Below are positions 3,001 to 6,000 of a DNA stretch of 15,635 bases, piece by piece. Source of the DNA: a virus (lineage: Duplodnaviria; Heunggongvirae; Uroviricota; Caudoviricetes); IMG/VR virus record IMGVR_UViG_2526164662_000033, one strand, 5' to 3'. Made by a program: the position numbers. The number at the start of each line of letters is the position of its first letter. The first letter of the stretch is position 1.

Positions 3001-6000
3001 TCTGGATAAAACACTTACCGTGAATACAGGTGCGCTGCTGACAATGTCAGTCAGTGCCAACGGGGGAACGCCGCCGTATAAATACGCCTGGAAGAAGGAT
3101 GGTCAGCCGGTTGACGGGCAGACGACAGACACCTTCAGTAAGCCAGGTGCGCAGTCCGCTGATGCGGGGAAATATACCTGCGTGGTGACCGATTCGGCAG
3201 AGAAAGCACAGAGTGTGACGTCTGTTGAATGCACCGTGACAGTGAGCGCAGCCGCCGGATAAGGGGATGGGTCATCATGAAAAAGGATCTGAAAACGCTG
3301 GCGCTGGCCAGACTGTCAGGGTTTCGTCATAAAACGGTGAAGGTGCCGGAATGGGGTAATGTCAGCGTGGTGCTGCGGGAGCCTTCGGCAGAGGCCTGGT
3401 ATCTGTGGCAGAAAGTGCTCAATGGTGATGGAGAGGATGACGATACCCTGTCGGTGGTGGCGAAAACCCGCCGTAACCTGGAAGCGGATGTGACGCTGTT
3501 CTGCGATGTCCTGTGTGATACGGATCTGCAGCGGGTGTTCGCTCCGGACGACCGTGAGCAGGTGCTGGCCGTCTATGGTCCGGTACATGCCCGGTTGCTG
3601 CGTCAGGCACTGGAACTGATCGCTGATGCAGAGTCGGCCAGAAAAAAGTAGCCCGCCCGGAAATTCGCTTTCTGATGCGACTTGCGCTCCGTCTGGGGCG
3701 CACCTTATCCGAACTGCGGCACAGCCTGAGTGCGAGCGAGGCGATGATGTGGATGGAGTTTGACAGGGTGTCCCCGCTGGGTGATGAGCGCGGGGATATC
3801 CGTAATGCACAGATCGTGAAAGCGGTTTTCGGGGCACAGGGGATGAATGTTGCACTGAAGGACGCCATGCTCTGCTGGGGCGAGGATGAGGATAAGCCGG
3901 AGGTGGATCCGTTTGCGGCGCTGGAAGACGCGCTGAGCTTCGCAGCACAGTCATGAATGATGAGAACCGCTGAGGCGGTTTTTTTACGCCCGGAGAAAGG
4001 TGAATGGCGACGTTACGTGAACTGATTATCAAAATTTCGGCAAATTCGCAGTCATTCCAGTCGGAGATCCAGCGGGCTTCCCGCATGGGCAGTGAATATT
4101 ACCGGACCCTGCAGAATGGCGGGCGTCAGGCTGCCGCAGTCGCCCGGGAGCAGCGACGCGCCCTGGCTGAGCTGAACAGCCAGTTGACGGAAATCCGCGC
4201 TTCAGCTGCCGGAACGGCGGGGGCATTTGCAGGTGCCTTTGCCACCGGACACCTGATTTCTCTGGCCGATGAATGGAGTTCCGTGAATGCCCGACTGAAA
4301 CAGGCGTCGCAGTCATCCGATGAATTTTCGTCATCACAGAAAGTGCTGATGGATATCAGCCAGCGGACGGGCACGGCATTTTCAGATAATGCGGCCCTGT
4401 TTGCCCGCTCGGCAGCCTCAATGCGTGAATATGGTTACAGTGCTGATGATGTGCTGAAGGTGACGGAGGCCATTTCCACGGGGCTGAAAATCTCCGGTGC
4501 CAGTACGGCAGAGGCGGGCTCGGTGATCACCCAGTTCAGCCAGGCGCTGGCACAGGGTGTGTTACGCGGTGAGGAATTTAATTCGGTCAATGAAAGCGGA
4601 GACCGGATCGTACGTGCACTGGCTGCGGGTATGGGCGTGGCCCGTAAAGACCTTAAGGCGATGGCGGACGACGGCAAACTGACGGCGGATAAAGTCGTTC
4701 CTGCGTTAATCAGCCAGCTGGGGGTATTGCGTGATGAATATGCCGCCATGCCGGAAACGGTCTCTGACGGGATCACAAAGGTGGAAAACGCCTTTATGGC
4801 CTGGGTGGGTGGCGCGAATGAAGCCAGCGGGGTGACAAAAACGCTCTCCGGCGTGCTGAACGGTGTTGCCGGTAATATTGATAATGTGGCAACAGCCGCG
4901 GGGGCGCTGGTTGCCGTCGGGGTTGCCCGGTACTTTGGCAATATGGCCTCCGGAGCGGTGTCTGCCACGGCAGGACTTGTGACGGCAGCACGTAATGAAG
5001 TGGCACTGGCGGAAGCACAGCTCAGGGGGACGCAGATTGCCACGGCGCGGGCAAGGGCAGCCGTGTACCGTGCACAGCAGGCTGTGGCGGCAGCCCGCGG
5101 GACGGAGATGCAGATTGCTGCAGAAGCCCGTCTGGCGGCCACACAGGAACGCCTGAACAGAAATATTGCTGCCAGAACCGCAGCCCAGAATGAGCTGAAC
5201 AGTACAACGGCGGTGGGCTCACGTCTGATGACTGGTGCGTTGGGACTGGTTGGTGGCGTACCCGGACTGGTGATGCTGGGGGCAGCAGCATGGTATACGC
5301 TGTACCAGAATCAGGAGCAGGCCAGGGAGTCAGCGCGCCAGTATGCACTGACGATAGATGAAATCGCGCATAAAACGCCGTCAATGTCTTTGCCTGAAGC
5401 CTCAGATAATGAAGGACGAACACGGGCGGCGCTGGCAGAGCAGAACCGGCTGATTGATGAACAGGCCAGCCGGGTGAAATCCCTGCAGGAAAAAATCGCT
5501 GGATATCAGTATGTTCTGGCTAACCCTGGCTGGACAACCGGTGACGGATTCATGATAAACCATCTGACATCGGTGAAGACCGTGACGGAAGGGCTTTCTC
5601 AGGCAACAGAGCAGCTTGCCGTTGAGCAGTCCCGTCTGGCACAGATGCAGGAAAAAGTGCAGTCCATTCAGGATGTGCTTGCCGGGCTGGAAGACCGTCG
5701 TGTGGCGTTAATTCGTCAGCAGGCGGCAGAGCAGAATAAGGTGTACCAGTCCATGCTGGTTATGAACGGTCAGCATACGGAATTCAACCGTCTGCTGGGG
5801 CTGGGGAATGAACTGCTTCAGCAGCGTCAGGGACTGGTGAATGTACCGTTACGGCTGTCGCAGGCCACCCTGGATGATAAACAGCAGAGCGCCCTGACAA
5901 AAACAGAACGTGAGCTGGCCCTGTCCCGACTGAAGGGGGAGGAAAAAGAGCGTGCCCGGCTGGGGTATGCGGCGGATGACCTTGGTTTTGTGGGGGATTC

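Follow-up and report, generated by a model that had tools for sequence, protein, structure and literature searches.

An I-set-type immunoglobulin domain at the C-terminus of an HK97 gp12-type tail tube protein from an Escherichia coli prophage

HK97 gp12, BP-4795 ORF64 and PY54 gp12 are I-set examples among the tail tube proteins of phages that bear an immunoglobulin (Ig)-like domain (PMC9022992, citing Fraser et al. 2006). In SPP1 gp17.1*, a fibronectin type III (FN3) domain is appended to the tube protein through a +1 frameshift (PMC9022992). The locus described here lies on a stretch of 15,635 nucleotides from a virus of the Caudoviricetes (IMG/VR record IMGVR_UViG_2526164662_000033), referred to at its full length as the window. 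One of its genes encodes a major tail (tube) protein and belongs to an E. coli prophage of the HK97-like lambdoid kind, of the type found in Shiga toxin (Stx) phages; the C-terminal part of the product is an Ig domain. An Ig-decorated tube protein of this HK97 gp12 or Stx-phage type is already known. The original prediction, made without database searches, had put forward a different Ig class fused to a tube domain not obviously like that of lambda gpV. The combination is not a fresh variant, having already been tabulated under HK97 gp12 and BP-4795 ORF64. The finding adds little in itself, since I-set Ig domains on the tail tubes of HK97-like and Stx phages have been catalogued since 2006 and are labelled in RefSeq.

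The open reading frame (ORF) of 238 residues is assigned to PHROG 158, 'major tail protein', by profile search (E 2.8e-117, residues 1-237). The segment 3002-3259, on which the prediction was centred, is the C-terminal end of ORF 2546-3262 on the plus strand, and the peptide quoted for it is its exact translation. Downstream, the tube gene is followed in order by the G/T chaperone, the tape measure protein, M, L, K, I and a J-like gene. In near-identical phages and in HK97 its upstream neighbour is the tail terminator gene; in the window, the insertion sequence (IS) ISEc23 stands there. The context of the G/T chaperone pair and the synteny of the tail genes fix the identity of the tube gene, and its earlier naming as a major tail protein is borne out by the PHROG 158 match together with the position ahead of G/T, the tape measure gene and M to J.

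The closest relatives come from Stx phages and their kin. Proteins of Stx-converting phages, annotated either as major tail protein or as 'immunoglobulin domain-containing protein', match the window protein at 99-100% identity. It differs from YYZ-2008 gp59 by 1 substitution in 238 residues, matches the Stx1_499 protein without a difference over residues 1-222 (100% identity) and is 91% identical to BP-4795 ORF64 (Q6H9U0). The DNA of this region shows 99.2-99.6% identity to that of Stx1a-converting phages and of phage YYZ-2008; the YYZ-2008 product is named 'immunoglobulin domain-containing protein' in RefSeq. The corresponding protein-database clusters have thousands of members, mostly from E. 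coli, with relatives in Klebsiella, Pectobacterium, Enterobacter and others.

The prediction of a C-terminal Ig domain of the I-set type was confirmed by Pfam profiles, three of which match above their gathering cut-offs: Ig_3 (37.4 bits, E 3.7e-9, cut-off 30), Ig_2 (35.5 bits, cut-off 27) and I-set PF07679 (33.3 bits, cut-off 23.7, residues 149-227). Ig_3 being the best-scoring Ig profile, the I-set label is approximate as a subtype. Big_2 gave no Pfam match at E <= 1 in the window protein and no Big_2 structure was found among the top 60 matches; lambda gpV bears a Big_2 domain instead (70 bits), as stated in the original prediction. Searches of the PDB by sequence retrieved Ig domains of other phage proteins, namely 9ncf_S (E 2.8e-38), Sf14 gp20 (9c2d_S, E 7.6e-28) and T5 pb10 (8zvi, 5lxk, E about 1e-19 to 1e-17). 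Eukaryotic members of the Ig superfamily (IgSF) such as Robo, Dscam and contactin were also matched significantly, and titin was matched at E 3.6e-12 when the search was run with the family profile.

The AlphaFold models agree with the profiles. The predicted local distance difference test (pLDDT) score of the Ig part is 94-97 in the full-length model and 96.4 when the domain is modelled alone, and the beta-sandwich that had been anticipated is predicted with confidence (pLDDT 96). It is a Greek-key sandwich superposable on the I-set archetypes telokin and titin. The predicted strands are A (148-151), A' (156-160), B (165-172), C (179-184), C' (187-188), E (196-199), F (208-215) and G (223-234), and the gap of 7 residues between C' and E holds no predicted D strand. 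Since D is lacking and C' is short, the model describes a compact I-set/C2 intermediate of seven to eight strands.

The hallmark residues are those of an Ig fold. The tryptophan of strand C (W182) and the D-x-G-x-Y-x-C motif of strand F (D206-A-G-K-Y-T-C212) are present and are 93-100% conserved in the family alignment, and L153, G173, G174, Y178, W182, G208, Y210, C212, D216 and S226 are near-invariant across the family. The G-x-Y-x-C motif had been rightly placed in strand F (G208-K-Y-T-C212). The W-x-K-D-G motif, present as W182-K-K-D-G186, belongs to strand C and the C-C' turn and not to the B-C region; the proposed span of 3002-3259 covers the right region but starts about 15 nt late and takes in a four-residue tail (AAAG) at its end. 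A disulfide between strands B and F is common in I-set domains without being obligatory. Strand B (LTMSVSAN) is without cysteine, so that the canonical bond is impossible here. Conservation in the family is about 90% for both C212 in strand F (3179-3181) and C229 in strand G (3230-3232). An obligatory F-G disulfide between them was considered and remains a candidate; the two cysteines do not strictly co-occur, one or the other being absent from each of the homologs P0030, P0073, P0083, P0085 and P0090.

The N-terminal domain is less easily recognised. Its match to Pfam Phage_tail_2 is weak (25.5 bits, cut-off 23.8), Phage_TTP_12 stays at 20.3 bits, under its cut-off of 26.1, and Phage_TTP_11 is also under its cut-off. 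Lambda gpV itself scores 235 bits with Phage_TTP_12, and BLASTP aligns the window protein to it only in a local match of 25 residues. The original prediction called the tube domain not obviously lambda V-like. This holds for the sequence, but not for the predicted fold: the whole model, submitted to Foldseek, found its best match over the full chain in lambda gpV (7t4f_A, E 2.9e-9; also 8iyk_D and 8iyd_A). Matches confined to the tube-sized part were the YDC107 tail core (9mfe_A, rank 17) and the lambda tail tube (8k36_A, rank 50). The tube domain is thus modelled with the fold of lambda gpV-N, an Hcp-like beta-sandwich, while being unlike it in sequence. This part of the AlphaFold model is of moderate quality (pLDDT 73-90), with a disordered or low-confidence loop at residues 45-67 that would correspond to the long inter-ring loop of tube proteins. 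The linker is placed in the models between the last tube strand and strand A of the Ig domain.

The Ig domain is, as comparison of homologs shows, an optional, accessory part in the HK97 gp12-type family. Homologs of 147 residues that are about 80% identical in the tube domain end right after the conserved KGKP, without any Ig domain; P0106 (locus L006, 3001-3444), P0098 and P0120 are examples. Locus L006 carries an intact-looking, syntenic HK97-like tail module in which 8 nt separate the stop codon of the tube gene from the start of the chaperone gene. Addition of the domain by a programmed frameshift of the SPP1 kind was considered for the Ig-less homologs and rejected for L006, the one locus examined, because the chaperone gene begins so close to the stop. 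Across the family, the mean pairwise identity is 51% in the Ig domain and 72% in the tube domain. Two homologs of 237 residues, P0085 and P0090, are 72-73% identical in the tube domain and only 31-33% in the C-terminal domain, where there is no precomputed Pfam Ig match and the cysteine of strand F is absent. They bear either a very divergent Ig module or a replacement of it.

Part of the Ig domain has been exchanged between related phages. A patch running from its second half into the first chaperone codons (Table 1) is 53-76% identical to Stx1a_10314 (L013) and BP-4795 (L012), with flanks that are 96-100% identical. Against Stx1a_10314, the identity is 100% over 2522-2926 and over most of 3422-4456, with a milder shoulder from about 2927, and the first 381 nt of the tube gene show zero differences. 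The island is clear only against these two phages. A clean exchange of the Ig domain alone, sought against P0004 and HK97, was unsupported, as the divergence stays high downstream too. The number of synonymous substitutions per site (dS) in the patch is about 1.9, the ratio of the nonsynonymous rate to it (dN/dS) is 0.10, and the differences are mostly synonymous changes at third positions; over the two divergent segments, residues 128-187 and 188-238, dN/dS is 0.10-0.24. These values identify an old allele introduced by recombination and kept under purifying selection, and not the outcome of hypermutation. The alleles differ at 22 amino acids. Fifteen of these fall within residues 188-238, where they touch the stretch between C' and E, both the E-F and F-G loops, every second position along strand F, and also strand G and the C-terminal tail. 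The core pattern (Y210, C212, V214, C229, V231, V233) is kept. The strand pattern suggests that the variable positions of strands F and G and of the loops face the surface. Among 98 phage records with the region, 18 are at least 99% identical to the window and 73 are at 90-95%, which is consistent with two main Ig alleles. A tail gene that encodes an Ig-type fold and varies within sharp limits at its 3' end could also point to a diversity-generating retroelement, of which the patch would be the variable region, or to other targeted hypermutation. This explanation was rejected and can be regarded as effectively refuted: self-BLAST found no second copy in the window usable as template repeat, no reverse transcriptase occurs among the 17 window proteins profiled (8 of the tail module and 9 from IS and flanking ORFs), and the mostly synonymous third-position substitutions are not those of adenine-targeted mutagenesis.

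Taken together, the data very probably describe an HK97-like, Stx-type tube subunit, whose Ig domain would act as an outward-facing, dispensable glycan adhesin of low affinity. In siphophage tails, tube domains stack as hexameric rings that enclose the tape measure protein; lambda, with a tape measure protein of 853 residues (gpH), has 32 rings. Residues 1-140 would likewise form the rings of the tube, from each subunit of which an Ig domain would project on the seven-residue linker; scaling from lambda to the 1080-residue tape measure protein, about 40 rings and roughly 240 Ig copies per tail would be expected. Such an array could bind carbohydrates of the cell envelope, gut mucins or both, weakly and multivalently, and could raise the phage concentration near the hosts, while the tip protein J would set the actual receptor. 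By analogy with other phages, adhesion to surface or mucin glycans would be the most likely role. The Ig domains of T4 Hoc bind fucosylated mucin glycans, and one substitution alters mucus retention (PMC9271167); in T5 pb10 the Ig domain is exposed to solvent, and this role has been put forward for it as well (PMC5292684). The Ig-like domains of tail tubes are dispensable for tube formation and can improve infection (PMC9022992). In the present family, the residues that determine the fold are conserved while the Ig domain diverges faster than the tube. Several points weigh against this explanation. Glycan binding was demonstrated for Hoc on capsids, a different setting from that of a tail domain, and no experiments on the Ig domains of HK97 gp12 or of Stx-phage tails were found in the searched literature. 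PDB sequence searches with the protein and with the family profile found no solved structure of the tube domain, so the outward display of the Ig domain is drawn from lambda, T5 and the model. Finally, the tube gene may be silent at this locus, since an IS stands upstream and the J-like gene is truncated.

The main rival explanation holds that the Ig domain serves mainly the assembly or stability of the tail, through solubility, spacing or bracing of neighbouring rings, and is not an adhesin. Some mutants without the Ig-like domain of the tail tube infect substantially less (PMC9022992, its ref 56, on lambda gpV-C), the Ig-like insertion of YSD1 wraps adjacent subunits (PMC9022992), and the domain is kept in thousands of database sequences. 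The natural homologs with a tube domain about 80% identical nevertheless do without it, including the one in the intact-looking module of L006. Moreover, the inferred surface positions in strands F and G and in the E-F and F-G loops vary between alleles carried on otherwise identical modules, which is hard to reconcile with a conserved contact between subunits. A structural role is therefore unlikely to be the main one, though it keeps some weight. Far less probable is a domain without function, a passenger carried along solely because phage Ig modules recombine so promiscuously. In favour of this speak the occurrence of the same Ig family across several protein types in 1,204 phage records and the existence of Ig-less relatives. 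A passenger would not be expected to show purifying selection (dN/dS 0.10-0.24 even across anciently diverged alleles) or near-invariant core residues, and the homologous Ig domains of Hoc have measured glycan binding.

Given the sharp limits of the exchanged patch on otherwise identical Stx-phage modules, a further reading is that the Ig domain of the tail tube could act as a second, swappable specificity determinant of Stx phages. This is a speculative proposal with a low chance of being right. If it were true, the alleles might bind different structures of the O-antigen or lipopolysaccharide (LPS), or different gut mucin glycans, and might thereby shape both the persistence sites and the strain range of Stx phages; an effect on the mucus retention of Shiga-toxin phages would be of some medical interest. 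The more general question is that of the ligand of tail-tube Ig domains, for which the Stx-phage alleles, with identical backbones differing only in the Ig patch, offer a clean natural pair.

The state of the locus is marked by two elements of the IS66 family (Table 1). The window starts 8 nt inside the left end of ISEc23, which leaves the phage genes beyond the element out of view, and the native phage DNA between the other end of the element and the tube gene amounts to 24 nt, including an AGGAGG site that is identical in YYZ-2008. In the intact YYZ-2008 sequence, a terminator-like hairpin (CCCGC-CGCGT-GCGGG, then T6) separates the tail terminator gene from the tube gene, and the insertion point falls within its 3' arm; a putative terminator is annotated at the same place in HK97. 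None of the complete E. coli genomes in the collection contains the exact junction of IS and phage. In another strain, the same IS sits within the tube gene. A target-site preference of ISEc23, looked for in BLAST matches that run past the end of the IS, was dropped, as the five aligned junctions share only one G. The transposase gene tnpC of ISEc23 is split by indels, with 5 gap positions when set against the intact copy of strain 1449, and is a pseudogene or reflects an assembly error. The DNA of the second element is not similar to that of the first. With ISEc23 parting the tube gene from the upstream late genes and the second element cutting J, the prophage is probably defective; the tube gene itself is intact, one residue away from YYZ-2008 gp59.

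It was also considered that ISEc23 had cut the tube ORF at its N-terminus, a suspicion prompted by the 261 residues given in RefSeq for YYZ-2008 gp59. This was rejected on several grounds. The extra 23 residues of gp59 result from the choice of a start codon further upstream, which overlaps the terminator-like hairpin. The start assigned by the Prokaryotic Genome Annotation Pipeline (PGAP) in strain 1449, at an equal distance from the preceding gene, corresponds to the ATG at 2546. PHROGs 11009 and 27374 begin at residue 1, and AGGAGG lies 4 nt upstream. The deposited start of gp59 (L001, 3956-4024) is 23 codons upstream of the ATG used elsewhere; that of BP-4795 ORF64 (L012, 2188-2316) is 43 codons upstream and overlaps the end of the tail terminator gene. 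Both deposited starts are probably over-extended. Further downstream, the -1 frame entered at the slippery heptamer continues into the T-like ORF, as the conserved G/GT frameshift predicts.

Table 1. Coordinates of the tube gene, its domains and the neighbouring features in the window.
Feature	Position	Strand	Description	Basis
ISEc23 (IS66 family)	1-2521	-	Directly upstream of the tube gene, in opposite orientation	
ISEc23 transposase gene tnpC	23-307, 401-895, 1053-1424	-	In three ORFs; indels	
ISEc23 right end, ACGCTTAC	at 2521		24 nt before the tube ATG	
Ribosome-binding site AGGAGG	2536-2541	+	4 nt before the ATG at 2546	Sequence reading
Major tail (tube) protein gene	2546-3262	+	238 aa and stop; HK97 gp12 type	ORF list, PHROG 158, BLASTP
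Tube-forming domain	2546-2965	+	Residues 1-140; ends at the conserved KGKP	Weak Pfam match, Foldseek, 147-aa homologs
Linker VSFVVPL	2966-2986	+	Residues 141-147	Variable, gapped stretch of the family alignment
Ig (I-set/IgSF-type) domain	2987-3247	+	Residues 148-234	Pfam, AlphaFold models
Allelic patch	3107-3286	+	Ig residues 188-238, spacer and first chaperone codons	Sliding identity
G-like tail assembly chaperone	3277-3651	+		PHROG 344, 337, 14766 for the chaperone pair
Slippery heptamer A_AAA_AAG	3642-3648	+	Just before the G-like stop codon	Sequence reading
T-like ORF	3675-3956	+	-1 frame	PHROG 344, 337, 14766 for the chaperone pair
Tape measure protein	4004-7246		1080 aa	Profile search
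J-like central tail fibre gene	9954-12404		816 aa	PHROG 31, positions 263-1073 of 1565
Second IS66-family element	12482-14817		Intact tnpA, tnpB, tnpC; cuts the J-like gene	

The Ig family of the window protein is widely distributed. The 1,204 phage records that contain it comprise tail tube proteins, T5-like head decoration proteins, 'neck whisker' proteins, Felix-O1-like tail proteins and T4-like fibritins. Such 'promiscuity' of phage Ig modules is said to have been described as early as 2006. T5 pb10, Sf14 gp20 and other Hoc-like head decoration proteins carry an Ig domain of the same sequence family. In T5 pb10, Sf14 gp20, Moo19 and the Hoc proteins of T4 and RB49, it is anchored to capsid hexamers via a capsid-binding domain, often in two to four copies, whereas the window protein has a single copy fused to a tube subunit. 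PHROGs 2973 and 4069 and the decoration proteins of the PDB align only to residues 98-238, i.e. the Ig domain and adjacent sequence. The possibility that the gene codes for a Hoc-like head decoration protein was rejected, its N-terminal part being a tail tube domain without capsid-binding domain.

Among tail tube proteins, SPP1 gp17.1* shares an optional Ig-like decoration at the C-terminus. In the window protein, by contrast, the domain is encoded in frame, and hence present on every subunit, and belongs to the IgSF and not to FN3; Ig-less relatives are encoded by genes of their own and, as judged from L006, do not arise by frameshifting. With lambda gpV, the top whole-chain structural match, the window protein shares a two-domain architecture and the position in the tail operon; the two differ in their Ig module, which is Big_2 in lambda and of the I-set/IgSF type here. 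The nearest long-described counterpart is HK97 gp12 (NP_037706), to which BLASTP aligns the window protein without gaps at 68% identity over all 234 residues (E 1e-122). Both have the same Pfam pattern and the same gene order, and they are set apart by allelic divergence only, which affects the Ig domain more than the tube domain.

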